From NCBI GenBank assembly GCA_045599025.1, contig JAZRVG010000066.1, positions 1-46,647 of the forward strand: a DNA stretch of 46,647 nt, in the 5' to 3' direction. The stretch comes from Christensenellaceae bacterium (lineage in GTDB: Bacteria > Bacillota > Clostridia > Christensenellales > Borkfalkiaceae). The notes beneath the pieces are model-generated. The model did not search any database. It was not told where the DNA came from and saw nothing but the letters and a program-made list of their open reading frames with translations. The position numbers and the translations under genes were made by a program. Of this stretch, positions 2,294 through 46,647 are shown in pieces (within the stretch, counting starts at the first letter, position 1; the number at the start of each line of letters is the position of its first letter).

Positions 2294-5200
2294 TTAGTTA
2301 ATTTTTTGAATAGAAATGTCTTTTACGATAGCAGGAGAATCTGCACTTGTAAAGTTAACGAAACATAACATTACGCAGTTTCCGTAACCGCTTACGTCCG
2401 TAAGAGTAAAGTCGTTATTATACTTTAATTCGTCGTACGAATATACCGTTGCAGTACAAGTAACCGTAGTCCACTCATCCGTTACGTTTTTAGTAAGAAG
2501 ATCGTATTTGGTTGCAAGTCCGTCAACAAACTTTCCTTCTCCCCACCTTATAGAAGATTTATCTTTTACCATCAGTTCCGAATAATTGTTAGTATTGGTA
2601 TTGAATTTTATCTTAAACGATACTTCAACTTCCGTTCCTTCGGCTAATTCGGTTGATAAACCTAAATAGTGTTGATAAGAAGTAGCGTTGGTATTGTGTC
2701 TTGTTCCCTTTGGAACTCCTTTACCGATATATTCAAATTCTACTTCTTTATAATAGAAATCTGTCGTTTTTCCTGCGTTAAGTGCAAGATAAATACATTT
2801 GCCTTCGTGAGTTAAAGTTAACGGTTTTTGATTTGAAGTAAAGGTGTAAGTCGTGTTATCTACTACTATTGCGTTAAATTCAATATCTACCCATTTACCA
2901 CTGTTTTCTTTTGCAAGTTTTGATACTATTGTCCAAATAGACACATCACCCGAAGCACTTAAATTTGCGTAATCACTCGTAGCGTTTTCGTAAATTTTCA
3001 TAGATACTTTTACGGTATCGCCTACTTCGTAGTTGCTCATATCAAAGAACTCTACACCGTAATAACCGGTATTAGCATCTCCACTGTTTGCGGCTTGCAT
3101 TGATACTTTTTTGCCTACGTATTCAACGGTTACGTTTTTATAATAGAAGTCACTGTCCTTTCCTGCGTTGTATGCAAGATAAATACACTTTCCTTCGTGA
3201 GTTAAAGTTAACGGTTTTTGATTTGAAGTAAAGGTGTAAGTCGTGTTATCTACTACTATTGCATTAAATTCAATATCTACCCATTTACCACTGTTTTCTT
3301 TTGCTGTTTTTGAAGTTGAAGACCAAATAGCAACGGAACCCGATGCTGCCAAATTTGACCAATCACTATTGGTGGTTTGGTAAACTTTCATAGATACTTT
3401 TACGGTATCGCCTACTTCGTAGTCGCTCATATCAAAGAACTCTACGCCGTAATAACCTGTGTTTGTATCTTGATTATTTGCGGCTTGCATTGATACTTTT
3501 TTGCCTACGTATTCAATATCTACGTCTTTATACAAGAAAATTGAAGTAGCACTGCCGTTATACGCAATATAAATACACTTGCCTTCGTGAGTTAAAGTTA
3601 ACGGTTTTTGATTTGATTTAAAGGTATAAGTAGTGTTATCTACTACTATTGCATCAAAATCAATATTTACCCATTTACCGCTGTTTTCTTTTGCAAGTTT
3701 TGAAACGGTAGTCCAAATTGCAACGTCACCCGACGCTCCTAAATTTGCGTAATCGCTCGTAGTCGTTTGGTAAACGCTCATAGAAACTTTTACGGTATCG
3801 CCTACTTCGTAGTTGCTCATATCAAAGAACTCTACGCCAAAATAACCCGTAGTTATATCTAAAGTGTTGGCAGGTTTCATTTTTAAAGGAGTACCTTCAA
3901 TCTTTTCAAAGTTTACTTCTTTGTAGAAGAAGACGGAAGTTTCGCCTGCGTTATAAGCAATATAAATACAATTCCCTTCGTATTCAAATTCTTTTTCTAT
4001 TTGGTTAGAAACAAACTTATAAGTTCCGTCGTTTTTAACGGTAGCAACAAAGTTAATTTCCGTCCATTCGCCACTATATCTTTTTGCTATATGAGCGTCC
4101 TTTTCTAACAACCAAATTGCATTACCCGTTGTTTGAAGATTTGAAAAATCACTATCGGTAGATTGATATACTTGCATAGTAACTTTTACAGTATCGCCTA
4201 CTTCGTAGTTGCTCATATCAAAGAACTCTACGCCGTAGTATCCGGTATTTTTATCGGAACTGTTTACGGCAACCATATCTACTTTATTTCCGTCTAATAC
4301 CTCAATATTTTTCGGTTTGTAAAACGCTCTAAATCCGCCTACGGTTACGCTTGATAATTTACCCATAGAAACGTAAATATCTCCGTTTTCGTCGGGGGTT
4401 GCCATATAATAAATTTCTTTATATTCGTCCGCCGAAAAATAAGTATTGTCCCAACTGCCGTATCTAACGCCTTTTCCTTCGTATTCCGATCCTTTATCTA
4501 CTCTTTGCCAGTTTTTAGCCATGTCGTATCTTTCTTTATTCCAAGCAAATAAGGTTACTTTAAAGTTTTCAATACTTTCGGGTGCGTTTTGGTTATATTG
4601 CAACAATACGTCCGCAGTTATTTTAACGGTTTTGTTAGCGTATTCTTCGCCTATATGAATTTTGGTCATTTCGTCCATCCACCAACAACCCGAATAATCG
4701 TAGTAAGGTAAAACGAACGAATCTTCTGCTATTATGGAAGAAGCCGTTTTGAACTCTTCCATTGTAATACCGTTTGGAAGAGTTGTAATTTTAGTTGCGT
4801 AAATATCGTCAACGTAAACGGTATTCGTGCCTACGGTGGCAAGAATTATAACGTTTTCGTATTCGTTTGCCGTCTTAAAGGTGATTTTCGTCCACTCGTT
4901 CCACTTAACCGTTTTACCGTTATCGGAAGAAGAACTGCAAGTTATTCTCGGGAAATCGTAAATAATTTTCGGTAATTGTCCTGCTGGAACGTATTCACTT
5001 TCTTCGCCTTGCGGTTTTTCAACGTAAACGAAAAGTGAAATTTCGTCAATAAGTCTAAAATCGGGAATAACGTCGCCGTATTTAACAAGGTTTAATTGTG
5101 CTCCGCCTACTATTTTTATAGACGCTCCCGTTTCGCCGTGTTTAATTTCTTTATTTATAGAAACGTTCTCTTTTGCAGTTGCTAAATTGCACTTTCTGTT

Positions 5201-6109
5201 ATCAAAAGAGTAAATTTCGTTTTCGTTTATATTAAGAGTTCCTATTTCCTTTAAAATGTTACTAAAAGAGTGGAAATCGTCTTTTATACATTCTAATTGG
5301 AAATCGTATTCTCCCGTTTTCGTAACGATATTGTCTTCAACGATATTTAACGTGTAAGTATCTTCTTCGGGAACTATTGAAGAAATATCTACTTCTTGCA
5401 ATTCTTGACCGGTAGGTGCAACCCAAAGTTTGAAGGAGTCAAAATCGTTTTTAACCCAAGAAAGCACGTGAATACTGTCGTTACATAACGAAGAAGGCGT
5501 TACTACCTTTAAAGTTTCACTCGTTTCGGAAACGTCCGATTCAAGATAGATTTTACTGCCTTTTGCATAAGTTTCACACTTAACAACGATAGTATGTTCT
5601 CCGTTAACCAAAGAAGAATATTCGGTTTTGCTGTATTTAATCCAACGTGTACCACCGTCAACTTGAACGGAATATTTTTTTGCATTTGCAACGGGTTCCC
5701 AAGTTAAAACGGTGTTCCTCGTTTCTTCGTTTACGGTTATGACAGGTTTACTCGGAGTTGCTAATTTTTCTACGCTTACTTCCTTTTCGGCAAGTTCGCT
5801 TTTTTCCGTACCTTTAACCGCTCTAACGTACAATTTTTGAGTGTTTAGAGTTATATTTAATTTAGATAAATCAATATTGTTTGCTCTTCCTTCCGTTTCA
5901 ACGAAAGTAACGCCGTCGGAACTTACTTCGTACTTATCAACGCCTTTAATAGCGTCCCATTCAAGTTCCGTACCTGAAAGTTGCAAATTTTCCGGTTTTG
6001 TAAGAGCGTCTTCTTTTCCTTTTCCGGAATTGTTTTGACAAGCAATAAAAAGTAAAGAAGAAGTCAACACTATTACACATATTGTGAGTAGTTTTATTAT
6101 TTTTTTCAT
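2294..6109 (-). CDS. 1271-aa cell-surface lipoprotein: N-terminal Fn3-like modules, a central beta-sandwich-like region, four near-identical ~130-aa CBM-like repeats and a diverged fifth
   Basis: ORF track. Signal peptide plus lipobox (MKKIIKLLTICVIVLTSSLLFIAC). SD AAGGGG lies upstream of the ATG at 6109. Fn3-like strings (e.g. LTWEPVANAKKYSVQVDGG). Repeats of GY(Y/F)GVEFFDMS.YEVGDTVKV...HEGKCIY. The domain class is inferred from architecture only. Confidence 0.75.
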   Translation of the reverse strand: MKKIIKLLTICVIVLTSSLLFIACQNNSGKGKEDALTKPENLQLSGTELEWDAIKGVDKYEVSSDGVTFVETEGRANNIDLSKLNITLNTQKLYVRAVKGTEKSELAEKEVSVEKLATPSKPVITVNEETRNTVLTWEPVANAKKYSVQVDGGTRWIKYSKTEYSSLVNGEHTIVVKCETYAKGSKIYLESDVSETSETLKVVTPSSLCNDSIHVLSWVKNDFDSFKLWVAPTGQELQEVDISSIVPEEDTYTLNIVEDNIVTKTGEYDFQLECIKDDFHSFSNILKEIGTLNINENEIYSFDNRKCNLATAKENVSINKEIKHGETGASIKIVGGAQLNLVKYGDVIPDFRLIDEISLFVYVEKPQGEESEYVPAGQLPKIIYDFPRITCSSSSDNGKTVKWNEWTKITFKTANEYENVIILATVGTNTVYVDDIYATKITTLPNGITMEEFKTASSIIAEDSFVLPYYDYSGCWWMDEMTKIHIGEEYANKTVKITADVLLQYNQNAPESIENFKVTLFAWNKERYDMAKNWQRVDKGSEYEGKGVRYGSWDNTYFSADEYKEIYYMATPDENGDIYVSMGKLSSVTVGGFRAFYKPKNIEVLDGNKVDMVAVNSSDKNTGYYGVEFFDMSNYEVGDTVKVTMQVYQSTDSDFSNLQTTGNAIWLLEKDAHIAKRYSGEWTEINFVATVKNDGTYKFVSNQIEKEFEYEGNCIYIAYNAGETSVFFYKEVNFEKIEGTPLKMKPANTLDITTGYFGVEFFDMSNYEVGDTVKVSMSVYQTTTSDYANLGASGDVAIWTTVSKLAKENSGKWVNIDFDAIVVDNTTYTFKSNQKPLTLTHEGKCIYIAYNGSATSIFLYKDVDIEYVGKKVSMQAANNQDTNTGYYGVEFFDMSDYEVGDTVKVSMKVYQTTNSDWSNLAASGSVAIWSSTSKTAKENSGKWVDIEFNAIVVDNTTYTFTSNQKPLTLTHEGKCIYLAYNAGKDSDFYYKNVTVEYVGKKVSMQAANSGDANTGYYGVEFFDMSNYEVGDTVKVSMKIYENATSDYANLSASGDVSIWTIVSKLAKENSGKWVDIEFNAIVVDNTTYTFTSNQKPLTLTHEGKCIYLALNAGKTTDFYYKEVEFEYIGKGVPKGTRHNTNATSYQHYLGLSTELAEGTEVEVSFKIKFNTNTNNYSELMVKDKSSIRWGEGKFVDGLATKYDLLTKNVTDEWTTVTCTATVYSYDELKYNNDFTLTDVSGYGNCVMLCFVNFTSADSPAIVKDISIQKIN
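2690..4250. repeat. Four in-frame tandem repeats, period exactly 390 bp, inside the surface-lipoprotein gene
   Basis: Lines 2821-2880 and 3211-3270 differ at 1 of 60 positions, and 3601-3660 is a third close copy. The GYYGVEFF-encoding block (aaagaactctac.ccgtaataacc) recurs at about 3045, 3435, 3825 and 4215. Outer boundaries are approximate. Confidence 0.85.
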
Positions 6110-6126: not shown

Positions 6127-7728
6127 TTAATCGTCTAACGGAATACCTGCCGCTTGCATTTTAGTTTTATATTTAGCATTGTCGTTTGCGGTGTAATTCG
6201 CTTTATTGTTGTTGTACATAGCAACTGCTCTCGTTCTATCGTATGATTTTTGAGAACCGAAAGATTTTTCTATATTCATACCTTCCGCATAAATGTAAGG
6301 AGTGAACGCTTTGTCCTTAAAGTTGATACAGAACGGTTTGCTATTTTGTAAAATTCTAATGTTTTGAGCACTAAATTTGTTTACGGTTGATAAAGCGTCG
6401 CTAAAATCGTGATTTTTAACGGGTAAAACTACGCCTGCGTTTGAAGAAACGTGAGTATCAATAGAAGTGTCTCTATACATAAATTGTAAGAATAATTTAG
6501 CAAGTCCTTTATTTTTAGCGTATTTAGGAACTACGTAAGTAGCCGCTTCACCACCGATATAACATAAACTTCTTGCGTCTTTAACCGTATTGAAGTCTTC
6601 TTGGTTAACCGAATAACCCGTTCCCGTCAAAGCGGTTTCTCCGTTATCTATTGCGGTAATAAGACTTGAAAGTTCTTCGTCGTTAGAAATGGTAGTACAT
6701 TTTTCTACTATTGAACTTATAACCGGAGTTCTCATAGGCTTTAATTCAAAGTCAGGACCGTCGGGATATAAAACGCTCATTTCGTTCATAATCCAAGCCC
6801 CGTTAGCCATAAACGCCGCTGCATTATCAAAGAATTTTGATTGAGCACCCATGTAATCTTCACCTACGGAAGTTTTGTAAATATTACCGTTATCATACCA
6901 CAATATATCTTCGCAAACTTGCATTGCTTTTAAAGTACCTTCAAGATAGGTTGAAGAAACGTCCGTTTTATAACTGCCGTCCGCTTGTTTAACCTTACCT
7001 AATTGCATTTGATTAAATTCTTCAAGACCTTGATATTGAGCAAACCAAGTACAATAAATTTGGTTCCAATAATCTACGCCCGTATCTCCCGAGAAAATAG
7101 TAGGAACTACACCGCTTGATTTAAGGTCGTTACATAAAGCAATCAATTCGTTAGTAGTTTTAGGAACTTCGCTGTCTTCTATAATATCGGCGTTATAAAC
7201 GAAACCGTACCAAGAAATATACGAAGGTAAAGTATAATAGTGGTTATCCGATAATTTGTGATAATTAACAAATTCGTCAGCCATTTTTTCGGTAATAGAC
7301 GAAGTTTCGTCTTGCCACTTATAAGACCAAACGTCGTCTAACGATTCAAATTGATCCCTATATTCAAAAATTATAGACTCGGAAGAAATTAAATCGTATT
7401 TTTGATTTTCTTTAGCCATCAATTCACCGAATATTACTTTTCTTTCGGGCGAAGAAGAGAGTTTAACCGTTACGTTGGGGAAAGCGTCGTTAAAATCGCT
7501 TATTACGCCTTCAATCCATTCAAGACCGAAACCGCCGTCCCAAGCACGGATTTTTAAAGTTCCGGAAATATCGTCGTTACCTACAACCATTTTTCCGTTT
7601 GAATCTAAATGATAGTAATCGCCAAGCACTTCTTCTTGATATTGTTCGTTTCCTTTACAGGCAACCAACGAAGATGCCATGATAACTACAAGTGCAAAAC
7701 TAGTTACTAATTTAAGTATTTTTTTCAT
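6127..7728 (-). CDS. ABC transporter extracellular solute-binding lipoprotein (large LplA-like sugar-binding type)
   Basis: ORF track. Lipobox MASSLVAC. SD AGGAG upstream. Size (~530 aa) and position next to two CUT1-type permeases. Confidence 0.8.
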   Translation of the reverse strand: MKKILKLVTSFALVVIMASSLVACKGNEQYQEEVLGDYYHLDSNGKMVVGNDDISGTLKIRAWDGGFGLEWIEGVISDFNDAFPNVTVKLSSSPERKVIFGELMAKENQKYDLISSESIIFEYRDQFESLDDVWSYKWQDETSSITEKMADEFVNYHKLSDNHYYTLPSYISWYGFVYNADIIEDSEVPKTTNELIALCNDLKSSGVVPTIFSGDTGVDYWNQIYCTWFAQYQGLEEFNQMQLGKVKQADGSYKTDVSSTYLEGTLKAMQVCEDILWYDNGNIYKTSVGEDYMGAQSKFFDNAAAFMANGAWIMNEMSVLYPDGPDFELKPMRTPVISSIVEKCTTISNDEELSSLITAIDNGETALTGTGYSVNQEDFNTVKDARSLCYIGGEAATYVVPKYAKNKGLAKLFLQFMYRDTSIDTHVSSNAGVVLPVKNHDFSDALSTVNKFSAQNIRILQNSKPFCINFKDKAFTPYIYAEGMNIEKSFGSQKSYDRTRAVAMYNNNKANYTANDNAKYKTKMQAAGIPLDD

Positions 7729-34615: not shown

Positions 34616-34644
34616 TTGACAATAATTTAGAGTTTTGCTATAAT
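34616..34644 (+). promoter_or_regulatory. Consensus promoter of the tRNA operon (TTGACA-17-TATAAT)
   Basis: TTGACA at 34616-34621, 17-nt spacer, TATAAT at 34639-34644. Lies 22 nt upstream of the first tRNA. Confidence 0.75.
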
Positions 34645-34666: not shown

Positions 34667-34740
34667 GCGGGTGTAGTTCAATGGTAGAACACCAGCCTTC
34701 CAAGCTGGTTGCGTGGGTCCGATTCCCATCACCCGCTCCA
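34667..34740 (+). tRNA. tRNA-Gly(UCC), CCA encoded
   Basis: Hand-folded cloverleaf: acceptor GCGGGTG/CACCCGC, anticodon arm CCAGC-CTTCCAA-GCTGG, T arm GTGGG-TCCGATT-CCCAT. The T loop reads TCCGATT, so position 55 is C rather than the usual U. Confidence 0.9.
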
Positions 34741-34793
34741 TTTACGCACAAACGTATTCGTTGAGGCGCTAACTTAATTTTTTAAAAATTTAT

Positions 34794-34870
34794 GCGCCAG
34801 TAGCTCAGCTGGATAGAGCACCGCCCTTCTAAGGCGGGTGTCAGGGGTTCGAATCCCTTCTGGCGTACCA
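34794..34870 (+). tRNA. tRNA-Arg(UCU), CCA encoded
   Basis: Acceptor GCGCCAG/CTGGCGT (G1-U72 wobble), anticodon arm CCGCC-CTTCTAA-GGCGG, T arm AGGGG-TTCGAAT-CCCTT. Confidence 0.9.
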
Positions 34871-34877
34871 CGTTTAT

Positions 34878-34954
34878 GGCGAGAGTAGCTCAATCGGTGG
34901 AGCGCCAGATTGTGGTCCTGGAGGCCGTGGGTTCGATTCCCATCTCTCGCCCCA
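34878..34954 (+). tRNA. tRNA-His(GUG) with encoded G-1, CCA encoded
   Basis: Eight nucleotides precede the TA at positions 8-9 (G-1 pairs with C73). Anticodon loop TTGTGGT. T arm GTGGG-TTCGATT-CCCAT. Confidence 0.9.
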
Positions 34955-34964
34955 GTTTTATCGT

Positions 34965-35039
34965 TGGGGTGTCGCCAAGCGGTAAGGCACCGGATTTTGA
35001 TTCCGGTATTCGTAGGTTCAAATCCTGCCACCCCAGCCA
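34965..35039 (+). tRNA. tRNA-Gln(UUG), CCA encoded
   Basis: U1-A72 start TGGGGTG...CACCCCAGCCA as in bacterial tRNA-Gln. Anticodon arm CCGGA-TTTTGAT-TCCGG. Confidence 0.9.
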
Positions 35040-35061
35040 AAAAAACGGTTTAATTTTATAT

Positions 35062-35137
35062 GGTCCACTAGCTCAGGCGGTAGAGCACTTGACTTTTAAT
35101 CAAGTTGTCCGGGGTTCGAGTCCCCGGTGGATCACCA
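35062..35137 (+). tRNA. tRNA-Lys(UUU), CCA encoded
   Basis: Acceptor GGTCCAC/GTGGATC, anticodon arm CTTGA-CTTTTAA-TCAAG, T arm CGGGG-TTCGAGT-CCCCG. Confidence 0.9.
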
Positions 35138-35142
35138 AAATT

Positions 35143-35218
35143 GCGCCTTTAGCTCAGTTGGTAGAGCAACTGACTCTTAATCAGTGGGTCCGGGGTTCGA
35201 GTCCCCGAAGGCGCACCA
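35143..35218 (+). tRNA. tRNA-Lys(CUU), CCA encoded
   Basis: Acceptor GCGCCTT/AAGGCGC, anticodon arm ACTGA-CTCTTAA-TCAGT, T arm CGGGG-TTCGAGT-CCCCG. Confidence 0.9.
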
Positions 35219-35230
35219 CTGATTAAAAGA

Positions 35231-35275
35231 AAAAGTCTTAACCCTTTCGGTTAAGATATTTTTTTTATTATAAAA
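35231..35275 (+). repeat. Copy 1 of a perfect 45-nt direct repeat (contains the tRNA-operon terminator)
   Basis: aaaagtcttaaccctttcggttaagatattttttttattataaaa is identical to 35481-35525, exactly 250 bp downstream. Confidence 0.95.
35236..35266. terminator. Intrinsic terminator of the tRNA operon (A-run/T-run flanked, so potentially bidirectional)
   Basis: 8-bp stem tcttaacc/ggttaaga with loop ctttc, followed by tatttttttt. Confidence 0.8.
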
Positions 35276-35470
35276 GTTAAGATTTTTTCGCCTTCGGGTA
35301 CTCTCACCTTCGGTTCGCCCACTTGCGTGGCGCTTACCCCTCGCATACTTCGTATGCCACCCCTCGGCGGGGGTCGCCCCCTTTTCGTCACGATTTTATC
35401 GTGCCACCTTTCCCATTAAGTGGGAAAGTTTACCCCTTATCAAGGGGCGGAAACCCCTTAGGCGCACCTA
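35276..35470 (+). other. GC-rich, hairpin-dense non-coding island of unknown class: candidate structured ncRNA, tRNA-derived relic or integration scar
   Basis: By hand count, 104 of 180 nt are G/C in 35291-35470, between visibly AT-rich flanks. Successive hairpins at 35343-35357, 35360-35381, 35389-35403, 35408-35428 and 35433-35459. The 3' end (35444-35468) mimics the tRNA-Lys(CTT) T stem plus acceptor 3' strand. There is no SD-preceded ORF. Confidence 0.5.
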
Positions 35471-35480
35471 CTCTAAAAAG

Positions 35481-35525
35481 AAAAGTCTTAACCCTTTCGG
35501 TTAAGATATTTTTTTTATTATAAAA
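35481..35525 (+). repeat. Copy 2 of the perfect 45-nt direct repeat (second copy of the terminator)
   Basis: Identical to 35231-35275. Confidence 0.95.
35486..35516. terminator. Second copy of the same intrinsic terminator
   Basis: Same hairpin and T-run as at 35236-35266. Confidence 0.75.
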
Positions 35526-35573: not shown

Positions 35574-37634
35574 ATGAATTATCAAGAATTTATTCAAAAA
35601 TACCGCCTATCTCCTAACGGGCAACAAGAAATTGCCATTAAAAGCGTAAGCGGTCATATTTTATTATTAGCCGTTCCCGGTAGCGGAAAAACAACTACAC
35701 TAATTTCAAGACTCGGCTATATGATTTTTTGCGAAAATATTTCGCCCAAAAAAATTCTTTCCATAACTTTTAGTAACGAAGCGTCAAAAGATATGGCAAA
35801 AAGATTTTTATCCGTTTTTAATACCGATAAAGATTTGGTTTTTCGTACTATTAACAGTTTATCGTTAGGGCTTATTACTTTTTACTCAAAGTTACACGAA
35901 GGATACAAGGTAAATAACCTTATAGAACAATCCGTTAAGAAAAAAATTTTATCTTCTCTTTACTATAATATTCATAAAATTTACCCGTTAGAAACCGAAA
36001 TAAATTCGGTAGAATCGGCAATTTCTATGAAGAAAAACCAAATGATTTTAGACGAAGAATTAAATGATTTTTCTAAAAAATTTGACTTTAATTTTAAGGA
36101 AATTTACAAAGGTTATTCGGAATTTTTAAAACAAAATTCTTTAATGGATTTTGACGACCAAATGGTTATAGCCTATAATCTTTTAAAAAGTGACAACGAA
36201 TTTTTACAAATTTGCCAAAATCAATACGAATACATTAGCGTTGACGAAGCACAAGACACTTCAAAAATTCAATACGAAATTATAAAACTCATATCAAACA
36301 AATATCAAAATTTGTTTATGGTTGGCGATGAAGACCAAAGTATTTACGGATTTAGGGGTGCTACGCCTAAAATACTACTTGATTTTGAAAAAGATTTTGA
36401 AAACGCAAAAGTAATTTATTCCGAACAAAACTACCGTAGCGGAAAAGAAATTTGCGACGCATCGCTTAACTTTATATCAAAAAATAAAAACCGTAAAGAC
36501 AAAAAAATAATCTCTACGCAAAATTTTACTTCAAAAATAAATAATATAGAGTTAAAACACGACTTTTTGCAATATCAATATTTACTTGACGTTGCGAAGA
36601 AAAACCCGAAAAACACGGCTATTTTATACCGTGATAACGATAGCGTTATTCCACTTGTAGATTTGCTTTTACGAAACGGTATTCCCTTTAAAATCAATAA
36701 AAAACAATCTTCTTACACTAACCGTATAATGCAAGATTTTATTGATATTTTAGAATTCGTTTTCCACCCGTACAGTACGGAAGCGTTTATGAAAGTTTAC
36801 TATAAAATAGGCTGTAAAATTGATAGAAAATACGCCGAAAAAGTTTGTCAATGCAGTACAAAAAACAACAAGCCCGTTTTGCAAACGGCAAGTTTTTTAC
36901 TCGGCAATAACAACCCTAAATTATCAAACGAATTAAAGAACGTTTGCAAGGAATTTTTAGGTTTAAGTGCTTATTCGGGCAGTGCCGTTTATACGAGAAT
37001 ATTGAACTATTGCGGTTATAAAAATTACTTGATTTATTCAAACAAACTTGACGAATACAAATTAAGAACTATTGAATTTCTTTCTTATAATTGCAAAAAC
37101 GCATCGGAACTACTTTACTTACTTAAAAATATAGACGCAAAACTTCAAGTAAACGAAGAAATGGACGAAGACGGCTTGATTTTATCTACAATGCACGCAA
37201 GCAAAGGAAGAGAATTTGACGAAGTGTATTTAATGGATATTATTGACGGAAAATGCCCTACCGTTGATACGGGTAGCCCCGATTACGAAGAAGAAAGAAG
37301 AATTTTTTACGTGGCTATGACGAGAGCGAAAAAAGTTCTTAATATTTTCACTTTTGCAAACACGAGTTCCCGTGAAAAGAGTAGTTTTTCCAAGGAAATT
37401 TTTGAAAATCCGACTAAAAAACAGGAATTAGTACCCGAAAAGAAAAAAAGTAATATCAACGTAGAAAAAATTAGCGTAGGCACACAAATAATGCACCTAA
37501 ATTACGGATTAGGCGAAGTGTTAAAAAAAGAAGAAAAAAACGGTTTAACCGTTCTATCGGTGCGTTTTAAAACGGGAGATAAAATTTTATCTTTAAACGC
37601 TTTAATAGAAAAAGGGTTAATTGAATTAAAATAA
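35574..37634 (+). CDS. UvrD/Rep/PcrA-family SF1 DNA helicase with a C-terminal Tudor-like tail
   Basis: ORF track. Motifs AVPGSGKTT (I), ITFSNEA (Ia), VDEAQDTS (II), VGDEDQSIYGFRGA (III), QNYRS (IV), VAMTRAKK (VI). The C-terminal string GTQIMHLNYGLGEVL resembles the PcrA/UvrD Tudor fold. Confidence 0.85.
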   Translation: MNYQEFIQKYRLSPNGQQEIAIKSVSGHILLLAVPGSGKTTTLISRLGYMIFCENISPKKILSITFSNEASKDMAKRFLSVFNTDKDLVFRTINSLSLGLITFYSKLHEGYKVNNLIEQSVKKKILSSLYYNIHKIYPLETEINSVESAISMKKNQMILDEELNDFSKKFDFNFKEIYKGYSEFLKQNSLMDFDDQMVIAYNLLKSDNEFLQICQNQYEYISVDEAQDTSKIQYEIIKLISNKYQNLFMVGDEDQSIYGFRGATPKILLDFEKDFENAKVIYSEQNYRSGKEICDASLNFISKNKNRKDKKIISTQNFTSKINNIELKHDFLQYQYLLDVAKKNPKNTAILYRDNDSVIPLVDLLLRNGIPFKINKKQSSYTNRIMQDFIDILEFVFHPYSTEAFMKVYYKIGCKIDRKYAEKVCQCSTKNNKPVLQTASFLLGNNNPKLSNELKNVCKEFLGLSAYSGSAVYTRILNYCGYKNYLIYSNKLDEYKLRTIEFLSYNCKNASELLYLLKNIDAKLQVNEEMDEDGLILSTMHASKGREFDEVYLMDIIDGKCPTVDTGSPDYEEERRIFYVAMTRAKKVLNIFTFANTSSREKSSFSKEIFENPTKKQELVPEKKKSNINVEKISVGTQIMHLNYGLGEVLKKEEKNGLTVLSVRFKTGDKILSLNALIEKGLIELK

Positions 37635-45762: not shown

Positions 45763-45837
45763 TGGGGTGTCGCCAAGCGGTAAGGCGACGGACTCTGACT
45801 CCGTCATTCGGGGGTTCAAATCCCTCCACCCCAGCCA
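45763..45837 (+). tRNA. tRNA-Gln(CUG), CCA encoded
   Basis: Same acceptor and D arm as the Gln(UUG) gene. Anticodon arm ACGGA-CTCTGAC-TCCGT. T arm GGGGG-TTCAAAT-CCCTC. Confidence 0.9.
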
Positions 45838-45867
45838 TAAAATCGTAGATTTTATCTACGATTTTTA
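45838..45867 (+). terminator. Intrinsic terminator after tRNA-Gln
   Basis: atcgtagat/atctacgat stem with a ttt loop and a T-run. Confidence 0.7.
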
Positions 45868-45916
45868 ATTTTTCGCAAATTTCTAATTAGTAGCTTTTCT
45901 GCACTAAAATTACATT

Positions 45917-45950
45917 TTTGGGACTGAATTTGGGATTAAATTTGGGACTT
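45917..45950 (+). repeat. Three direct copies of TTTGGGA(C/T)T at 11-12-bp spacing (candidate integrase/Xis arm-type sites)
   Basis: tttgggact at 45917-45925, tttgggatt at 45929-45937, tttgggact at 45941-45949. Confidence 0.5.
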
Positions 45951-45967
45951 GCAAATCCGTTTTTACT

Positions 45968-46647
45968 TTAAATTTCTAAATTTATTTTTTGATAATTTAC
46001 TTTCTCTGCTTCTTTTAATTGATAACTTTCGGAATAATCCGTATATCCCCTATCAATTACAGAACTTAAAACATCTTTATCTTCACTATGCCCGTCCCAT
46101 AACATTACTATTTCCGGATTAACTCCGCTTTCTTTACAACGAGTTATGAACGTATATCTTAACTCGTGTAAATGGTGTTCGCTAAACAACCTTTTCATTG
46201 TAGTATTTAATGAAGACAAGTTAACGTTCTTTGCCTTTTTAAAGTCAATATAAGGCAATACGGCTTTAAACATAGGGGTAAAAGGTATTTTCCTTTTTTC
46301 AACTACTTTTCCCATTCTTTGCTTGCTTGTTTCTACTTCTAACCAAGTATTGTCTATTACTTTTAAAGTTTTAAGTTCACTTCTTCTAAGACCTGTATAA
46401 ATTAAAACCAACAAAGCGTGCGACGTATCTCTATTTATATTTTGCAAACAATATGTAACAAGTTTTTGCTCTTCTTCATAAGTAAAGGCTTTGCCCTTCT
46501 TTGTTTCGTAATGCGGAAGGGTAACCTTTTTCATTGGAGAAGGCAATTGATAATCTTCTTGTGCCATGTCAAATATACAACGCAATACTAAATGCAACTT
46601 TTCCGCAGTTCTGTTTTTACCTTGTTTTGTAAACCTAAATAAAAATT
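45968..46647 (-). CDS. Tyrosine recombinase/phage-type integrase; N-terminus lies beyond the right window edge
   Basis: The ORF track starts at a TTG at 46597, but I translated 46598-46645 in frame (..FLFRFTKQGKNRTAEK-LHLV..) with no stop, so the gene is edge-truncated. Catalytic strings TGLRRSE, HELRYTF, WDGHS, and a terminal Y. Confidence 0.85.
   Translation of the reverse strand, partial: FLFRFTKQGKNRTAEKLHLVLRCIFDMAQEDYQLPSPMKKVTLPHYETKKGKAFTYEEEQKLVTYCLQNINRDTSHALLVLIYTGLRRSELKTLKVIDNTWLEVETSKQRMGKVVEKRKIPFTPMFKAVLPYIDFKKAKNVNLSSLNTTMKRLFSEHHLHELRYTFITRCKESGVNPEIVMLWDGHSEDKDVLSSVIDRGYTDYSESYQLKEAEKVNYQKINLEI

Follow-up and report, generated by a model that had tools for sequence, protein, structure and literature searches.

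The region distal to the tyrT-tyrV genes of Escherichia coli MG1655 contains three tandem repeats spaced by 178 nt, the last of which overlaps the final 19 nt of tyrV, and it is annotated as rttR/tpr. A small RNA, RttR, is released from the tyrT transcript of this species. By position, these 178-bp rtT repeats are the closest analogue of the element described here, a GC-rich and hairpin-dense island within positions 35219-35525 of a DNA stretch of 46,647 nucleotides from a Christensenellaceae bacterium (GenBank assembly GCA_045599025.1, contig JAZRVG010000066.1, positions 1 to 46,647; this whole stretch is called the window). With about even confidence the island is read here as an enlarged copy of an apparently undescribed family of palindromic, non-coding repeats at the level of DNA, situated in the tRNA 3' flanks of Christensenellaceae-type gut Clostridia. 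A DNA-level repeat is the most likely reading, rather than a new RNA gene, because the unit is built from an inverted and a direct copy of the tRNA 3' end followed by a second terminator. A literature search of open-access text found no account of this repeat family.

Both the rtT repeats and the present units lie directly 3' of a tRNA gene, occur in tandem and contain, in each repeat, the 3'-terminal part of that tRNA, which in E. coli measures 19 nt. No sequence similarity between the two is apparent. The rtT repeats differ in that they lack an inverted tRNA copy and a common hairpin core and are not separated from the tRNA by a terminator; they are confined to a single locus, whereas the present units follow several tRNA species, and according to the annotation they include a small open reading frame (ORF), tpr, together with the known RNA rttR. 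The REP, BIME and REPIN elements of proteobacteria, mobilised by RAYT, are short palindromes located after genes in alternating orientation, with tandem arrays that vary between strains and long hairpins with correlated changes in their arms. Unlike them, the present units are without a conserved head of the GTAG type, lie behind tRNA genes in all copies found and have arms copied from the neighbouring tRNA; no RAYT-type gene was seen in the parts of the genomes examined.

Integron attC sites and the attP(+) hairpin of the CTX phage consist of imperfect inverted repeats around a variable centre, occur in arrays, and are conserved more in structure than in sequence. The units lack the R''/R' core boxes (GTTRRRY) of attC and an integron integrase, their ends are tRNA sequence, and their spacers are terminators instead of genes. 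With integrative elements that target tRNA genes they share inserted DNA bracketed by a duplicated tRNA 3' end, but they have neither integrase nor cargo, measure only 100-250 nt, are conserved in their internal layout and contain a copy of the target in inverted orientation. Two reports describe GC-rich intergenic hairpin modules in AT-rich mitochondrial genomes that are gained and lost as modules (PMC2800124, PMC4524435); these palindromic clusters and hairpin elements are alike in modular turnover but are organellar, not derived from tRNA ends and not tied to terminators.

Anatomy of the unit

The island follows a tRNA operon of the order Gly-Arg-His-Gln-Lys(TTT)-Lys(CTT), located by ARAGORN and Rfam at 34667-35218 and preceded by a perfect promoter, TTGACA-17-TATAAT, at 34616-34644. 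All features that an earlier note had described directly from the letters were found at their coordinates. These included the 45-nt block at 35231-35275, repeated identically at 35481-35525 with an offset of 250, as well as every named hairpin and both three-part segments. The recounted G+C of 35291-35470 was 57.8% (104 of 180 positions) against 34.6% in the whole window. The 45-nt identity extends to a 52-nt repeat at 96% (35224-35275 and 35474-35525), and the repeat runs on at 74% into the 3' end of tRNA-Lys(CTT) (35203-35233 and 35454-35484), reaching the last 16 nt of the gene. The tRNA-like 3' part recognised earlier is a direct copy of the tRNA-Lys(CTT) 3' end, at 35454-35469. The 5' end of the island, overlooked in the earlier note, is derived from the same gene: 35289-35308 is the reverse complement of 35194-35213 at 17 of 20 positions. 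The 3' part of tRNA-Lys(CTT), 35194-35218, is the source of both unit ends. The parts of the window's unit, all given for the + strand, are as follows.

35143-35218, +: tRNA-Lys(CTT), last gene of the operon (ARAGORN; Rfam tRNA, 75 bits)
35224-35275, +: repeat copy 1, the terminator of the tRNA operon, with a stem-loop at 35235-35257 followed by a T run and preceded on its 5' side by an A run
35276-35288, +: GTTAAGATTTTTT, third copy of the terminator 3' arm and an alternative partner for 35229-35242
35289-35308, +: IR-L, CGCCTTCGGGtACTCtcACC, the counterpart in reverse complement of 35194-35213, which in tRNA-Lys(CTT) comprises the T-loop and the 3' strands of T-stem and acceptor
35306-35317, +: hairpin H1, ACC-TTC-GGT, ending in GGTTCG (alignments, pair counts)
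35319-35333, +: hairpin H2, CCAC-TTGC-GTGG, followed by GGCGC, homologous to GCC(C/G)-TTAGCA-(G/C)GGC GC of relatives
35343-35357, +: hairpin H3, GCATAC-TTC-GTATGC, a module with a hypervariable stem
35358-35432, +: window-specific expansion with three extra hairpin modules (E1-E3), missing from near-identical strains
35360-35381, +: E1, CCCC/GGGGG-TCG-CCCCC, then TTTT
35389-35403, +: E2, CACGAT-TTT-ATCGTG
35408-35428, +: E3, CTTTCCCA-TTAAG-TGGGAAAG
35433-35447, +: hairpin H4, CCCC-TTATCAA-GGGG
35444-35457, +: T-arm-like hairpin, GGGG-CGGAAA-CCCC, found in relatives in the same arrangement as GGGG-AATC-CCCC
35454-35469, +: IR-R, CCCCttAGGCGCACCt, in which the 3' strands of the tRNA-Lys(CTT) T-stem and acceptor recur in direct orientation
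35474-35525, +: repeat copy 2, the second terminator copy

H4 and the T-arm-like hairpin are mutually exclusive because one GGGG is common to both. The H4 hairpin sequence recurs identically in units of six relatives (L003, L004, L022, L074, L108 and L133; such handles denote loci of related genomes). Eleven perfect hairpin seeds of at least 5 bp were counted in the island, compared with a mean of 0.7 and a maximum of 5 in 1000 shuffles, and the minimum free energy of the island gave z = -4.0 on the + strand and -4.2 on the - strand. Both terminator copies, between which the island lies, score as terminators on both strands; for 35224-35275 this is due to the A run 5' of the stem-loop. The sole ORF of the island, 35323-35523, was confirmed to be without a ribosome-binding site and to pass through the terminator.

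Across the family the parts of the unit follow each other in the order tRNA (IR-R), terminator, IR-L, H1 with its GGTTCG end, core H2-H3-H4, AATC-like bases, IR-R and usually a terminator again; the segment that is repeated in tandem consists of IR-R, terminator, IR-L and core. In most complete units IR-R scored 13-16 out of 18 against the adjacent tRNA and at most 6 against other tRNA species, and the IR-R of the window scored 10 compared with 6 for other tRNAs. In three truncated units (L134, L024 and L124) IR-R showed no match to the local tRNA. For IR-L, the reverse complement of the adjacent tRNA was the best or tied best match in 14 of 15 units, examples being CGCCTTCGGGtACTC for Lys-CTT, GCGaGgAACGGaACTC for Gly and ACAGGAATC for Leu-TAG.

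The inverted and the direct tRNA-derived parts meet head to head in H1. Its GGTTCG is a direct copy of the end of the T-stem and the first four bases of the T-loop (tRNA G53-G57), so that the direct tRNA 3' copy bearing the core is preceded by its own complement. Since GGTTCG precedes the core and AATC-like bases and the T-stem 3' strand succeed it, the core is located between T-loop positions 57 and 58 of a tRNA 3' end copied as a fold-back. At L108 1487-1615 lies a copy of tRNA-Lys(TTT) with a complete 5' part, which after GGTTCG passes into the core H2-H4, continues as CCCCGGTG and then diverges; this tRNA, interrupted in the T-loop by the core and decayed at its 3' end, confirms the 57/58 position.

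Arrays end after the terminator in the window, L074, L060 and L035, and after an extra IR-L/H1 half in L006, L022, L039 and L090; a crossover anywhere in the repeated segment would yield such varied ends. The helix closed by IR-L and IR-R omits the discriminator and CCA in the window and L060, and in several units (L074, L004_u3) it is down to 3-5 bp or gone. The CCA has decayed in many copies and is lost in internal copies of arrays. In comparison with miniature inverted-repeat transposable elements (MITEs), the terminal inverted ends are copies of the local tRNA, and the duplication of 52-90 nt is far above the footprint of a transposase. IR-L was also considered as a binding site for a tRNA primer, an idea that was rejected as the complement of the CCA end is absent.

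Relatives of the unit and variation between strains

Relatives were reached through RdgB, which is encoded upstream of the island and has many relatives at 70-80% identity, in genome bins of uncultured 'Clostridia' and 'Christensenellaceae'. The UvrD-type helicase was unusable as a route, its homologues being about 40% identical and its exact sequence not on record. Genome contigs were also scanned with a degenerate pattern; the pattern is GC-rich and the matches listed were mostly from unrelated high-GC genomes, so only low-GC loci were kept. A covariance model (R1) built from 21 units and run over Christensenellaceae-type contigs found 33 units in 215,117 bases. The units are about 100 bases long, occur in arrays of one to three tandem copies, and lie directly 3' of a tRNA gene throughout, apart from those whose upstream flank is cut by a contig end and the unit at L108 1527-1629, which is embedded in a decayed copy of a tRNA. 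The tRNA species bearing them are Lys-CTT (with two acceptor variants), Lys-TTT, Gly-GCC, Leu-TAG and Leu-TAA. Three tandem units follow tRNA-Lys(TTT) in L004, one unit follows tRNA-Lys(CTT) in L006, and L005 represents an empty site. Several tRNAs of a single genome can be followed by units, as in L006 (Leu-TAA and Lys-CTT) and in L108, which has four. In three relatives the contig stops 60-110 nt into a GC-rich hairpin chain behind the equivalent tRNA operon. Core-type hairpins outside full units were not found in the 215 kb of related contigs. As the units of relatives carry the same duplication of tRNA 3' end plus terminator, the 250-bp repeat of the window is the regular arrangement of the family.

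Near-identical strains differ in their hairpin modules. Three public runs (X1, X25 and X5) yielded low-depth contigs that are near-identical to the window on both sides of the expansion and lack it, skipping 74, 83 and 90 nt of the 35358-35432 region, respectively. In X1, H3 is kept and joined to H4 via TT, and the unit ends in ...GCACCA followed by the tRNA's own flank; X25 has a different H3, and in X5 H3 is missing too. Hairpin modules are thus gained or lost between near-identical strains. X5 also contained a cyclic unitig of 194 nt, made up of the unit 3' end, the terminator and the unit 5' end, which therefore represents either tandem copies or a circle. Copy number varies likewise: L006 and L007 are 98% identical over 2.9 kb and hold one and at least two units, respectively. 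The arrays of L035 and L090 are 99% identical, and their downstream flanks differ.

Some further structures were observed at these loci. In the reverse complement of L133, at oriented positions 440-630, the loop of H1 holds an AT-rich insertion of about 190 nt with 13-nt inverted repeats, AGGCAAGCAAAGG and CCTTTGCTTGCCT, which looks like a MITE. At L001 5385-5465, behind tRNA-Lys(CTT), a different hairpin chain is found in which the contig ends; its units of about 25 nt consist of a spacer CATTGAATCAC (or CATTGCATCAC), a variable perfect hairpin and GTG. In the reverse complement of L039 (oriented 2610-2770) the unit and second terminator are followed by an AT-rich hairpin chain with TATAATTCG-like spacers and then by a solitary IR-L copy. 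The empty site L005 includes, at 6800-6990, the leader of a Na+/alanine symporter gene that by its appearance resembles a riboswitch, possibly for glycine.

Hairpin conservation and competing explanations

In the alignment of the 33 units, 90% of the cells at paired positions form pairs, compared with 31-63% after sliding of the partner columns. In eight pairs, among them all four of H2, both partners have changed, and H3 shows at least eight different stems (the eighth from L133) between conserved linkers, all perfectly paired except for one A.C in L004_u3. Paralogous units within one array differ mainly in their loops. The pairs comprise 320 Watson-Crick pairs compared with 15 G.U pairs when read on the + strand and 21 on the - strand, the G.U pairs being mostly in doubtful hairpins, and counting them for a strand signal revealed no bias. 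Changes of a single arm are few and split between the strands (L022_u2, a G.U in H4 on the + strand; L004_u3, the A.C in H3 on the + strand). In 21 of 23 units the more stable fold is that of the - strand, for which its G-richness alone could account. Hairpin loops of 3 nt are frequent, and some H3 tetraloops are of the GNRA type (GUAA, GCAA) on the - strand. Template switching between the arms of inverted repeats homogenises the arms (PMC8604942, PMC7202029) and makes inverted triplications (PMC4689423). The Watson-Crick purity and the 3-nt loops fit DNA palindromes kept perfect by intra-strand template switching, and selection on RNA fits no better.

If the unit acts as DNA, its inverted and direct skeleton may go back to a snap-back template switch that involved the T arm and the terminator, both natural hairpins, in an event that would resemble the inverted triplications of PMC4689423. 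The stems would then be held perfect by intra-strand template switching or by selection on the folded single strand. Units could be gained and lost by unequal recombination, replication slippage or Campbell-type recombination of small circles, with recombination acting across the repeated segment of tRNA 3' end plus terminator, and the shared core might move among tRNA loci by means of the universal T-loop sequence. Any RNA from the unit would be read-through of the tRNA operon, halted by the second terminator.

Several points weigh against this interpretation as a DNA-level repeat. No transposase, recombinase or circular intermediate was identified at the loci studied, and the spread of the core between tRNA loci is itself inferred. 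The snap-back model predicts one copy of the T arm at the second junction, whereas the units show an inverted and a direct copy. The H2 loop TAGC is conserved with freely covarying stems, as is also characteristic of a functional folded RNA, or of DNA that a protein recognises in single-stranded form. The unit is kept at the same tRNA operon across species in which RdgB is 70-80% identical, which could mean a function, and it may yield an RNA product. Most of the sequences come from metagenome bins. The similar TAGCA loops of H2 and H4 had also suggested an insertion of the IS200/IS605 type 3' of TTCG; this idea was unsupported, core hairpins being present only in full units.

A functional small RNA, proposed in the earlier note as a structured RNA with a tRNA-like 3' minihelix, is possible although unlikely. 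According to this explanation, read-through from the tRNA operon would be processed in a tRNA-like manner, the IR-L/IR-R helix mimicking an acceptor/T minihelix for RNase P and the 3' processing enzymes; with a 3' strand identical to the tRNA acceptor and T-stem strand and a free NCCA-like tail, a multi-hairpin RNA might be released by analogy with RttR. The hairpins and the tRNA-like end are real, and the conserved hairpins and loops, the compensatory changes, the significant folding energy, the second terminator after the unit and the GNRA tetraloops on the - strand would all suit an RNA, as would the omission of the discriminator and CCA from the closing helix in the window and L060 and the annotation of the E. 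coli analogue as a small RNA. There is, however, no positive evidence for a new RNA gene: no promoter-like site was found inside or beside the island on either strand, a good intrinsic terminator separates the tRNA from the unit, the stems are almost purely Watson-Crick with G.U enriched on neither strand, the closing helix shrinks or vanishes in L074 and L004_u3, internal copies lose the CCA, and copy number and module content vary within species. The island was matched neither to a tmRNA nor to a known RNA family. ARAGORN found no tRNA and no tmRNA in 35219-35525, the Rfam tRNA model gave nothing at E <= 10 on either strand of the island, and the lone match of the tmRNA model, at 9 bits, was situated on the genuine tRNA-Lys(TTT). 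At the gathering threshold Rfam, whose families covered include 6S, SRP, RNase P, T-box, YrlA and raiA, detected only the seven tRNAs of the window, and in E-value mode all matches in the island and the three-unit array of L004 were far below threshold. An exact 25-mer from the 3' part of the island had no match in genome or metagenome contigs, and no RNA run containing the island was found among public runs. One run of unspecified kind held fragments of the L021 units at a depth of 2-10, which is uninformative on RNA.

The remaining explanations involve mobility or decay. Improbable, in our view, is a mobile cassette, in which the unit would fold as a single strand so that the IR-L/IR-R stem restores a duplex tRNA 3' end as the site for a tyrosine recombinase encoded elsewhere, much as integron attC sites or the attP(+) hairpin of the CTX phage serve, and a small circle of IR-R, terminator, IR-L and core integrates into the tRNA 3' end. 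It predicts the observed order tRNA(IR-R)-terminator-IR-L-core-IR-R-terminator, and the tandem arrays, the cyclic unitig and the hairpins that keep their structure with variable, nearly all Watson-Crick sequence, as expected for DNA hairpins, are in line with it. Nevertheless, no recombinase was linked to the units, IR-L follows the local tRNA, which is unexpected for a mover between tRNAs without later correction, the signature boxes of attC are missing, the circles of 135-250 nt are inferred in the model only, and arrays that end after IR-L/H1 point to crossovers anywhere in the homologous segment. It is rather doubtful, too, that the unit is an active miniature element or tRNA-mimic RNA, a three-hairpin cassette at T-loop position 57/58 that would exploit the T-loop as the one sequence common to all tRNA genes. 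Its folded DNA or RNA would show a look-alike of the tRNA-end duplex to an enzyme of the host or of a mobile element, such as a recombinase, HUH nuclease, RNase P or CCA-adding enzyme, and would thereby be propagated or act as a decoy.

That the island is the scar of an element at the 3' end of tRNA-Lys, the second suggestion of the earlier note, stood as far as the repeat unit duplicates the tRNA 3' end and terminator. The island is not a prophage scar, and an attachment-site scar left by a phage or integrative element that entered by its integrase and was then almost wholly deleted is very unlikely. Direct repeats with the tRNA 3' end do flank the island, an integrase gene follows the L004 array, and at another place in the window tRNA-Gln has an integrase fragment next to it; the units, however, have their own conserved anatomy of 100 nt, which recurs after five tRNA species at some 20 loci, only one of which has an integrase. 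The left boundary of the L004 element is 80 nt past the last unit, and a second copy of this element, 98% identical, is found at a site that has neither a tRNA nor a unit in its vicinity, for which reasons the integrase scar was rejected. Phage records searched by blastn gave no match, nor did the unit pattern match in viral contigs searched with two patterns. Equally improbable is a plain decayed duplicate of tRNA-Lys(CTT) and its terminator; the decayed tRNA gene that the earlier note gave as its third option is supported in part only. The derivation of both ends from tRNA holds, and in L108 a whole copy of tRNA-Lys(TTT) is split by the core, but the 60-nt core is not tRNA-like, it is common to units behind Lys, Gly and Leu tRNAs (five tRNA species in all), and the 5' tRNA-derived part is inverted. 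In none of the approximately 20 loci did the island align at full length to an intact tRNA.

The units explain why genome assemblies of these common gut bacteria are interrupted directly after tRNA operons, and they offer annotators a recognisable feature, which could otherwise pass as the scar of a prophage or as a new RNA gene. They are a natural case of a repeat whose ends, one inverted and one direct, are copied from the neighbouring gene, a case relevant to the influence of template switching and recombination on intergenic DNA in bacteria. That 'compensatory' stem changes need not mean selection on RNA calls for caution in covariation-based discovery of RNA genes. Should the units prove to be mobile or to yield RNA, this would be a new use of the tRNA T-loop and 3' end.

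Neighbouring genes and other features

The genes downstream of the units are housekeeping genes that differ at each locus, with no constant neighbour, and no recombinase gene was found beside the unit at the window locus or at 12 other loci. The element with the integrase after the L004 array is located at L004 8347-10573, L128 2706-8159 and L130 10001-14601. It encodes a tyrosine integrase of 309 aa, a helix-turn-helix repressor-like protein, small ORFs and a REP_ORF2-G2P replication initiator, a gene set typical of a rolling-circle or filamentous-phage-like replicon, here at different integration sites. Beside a related integrase, L131 3921-7759 contains a pair of genes with the Pfam labels HamA and DEAD/ResIII helicase, which by these labels looks like a Hachiman-type defence system.

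In the window, tRNA-Gln(CTG) at 45763-45837 is followed by a terminator and, on the - strand at 45968-46597, by an ORF of 209 aa with a Phage_integrase domain (E = 1.5e-7); 45763-46597 probably represents the border of an integrated element situated at the window end. Directly behind the island, 35574-37634 encodes a helicase of the UvrD/PcrA type, the best homologues of which reach about 40-43% identity among 5.8 billion proteins, compared with relatives at 80% identity for the nearby RdgB; the helicase is either fast-evolving or acquired. An ORF of 1271 aa on the - strand at 2294-6109 has no Pfam match and contains an internal repeat of about 390 nt, with a 14-nt match recurring at 3018, 3408, 3798 and 4194.

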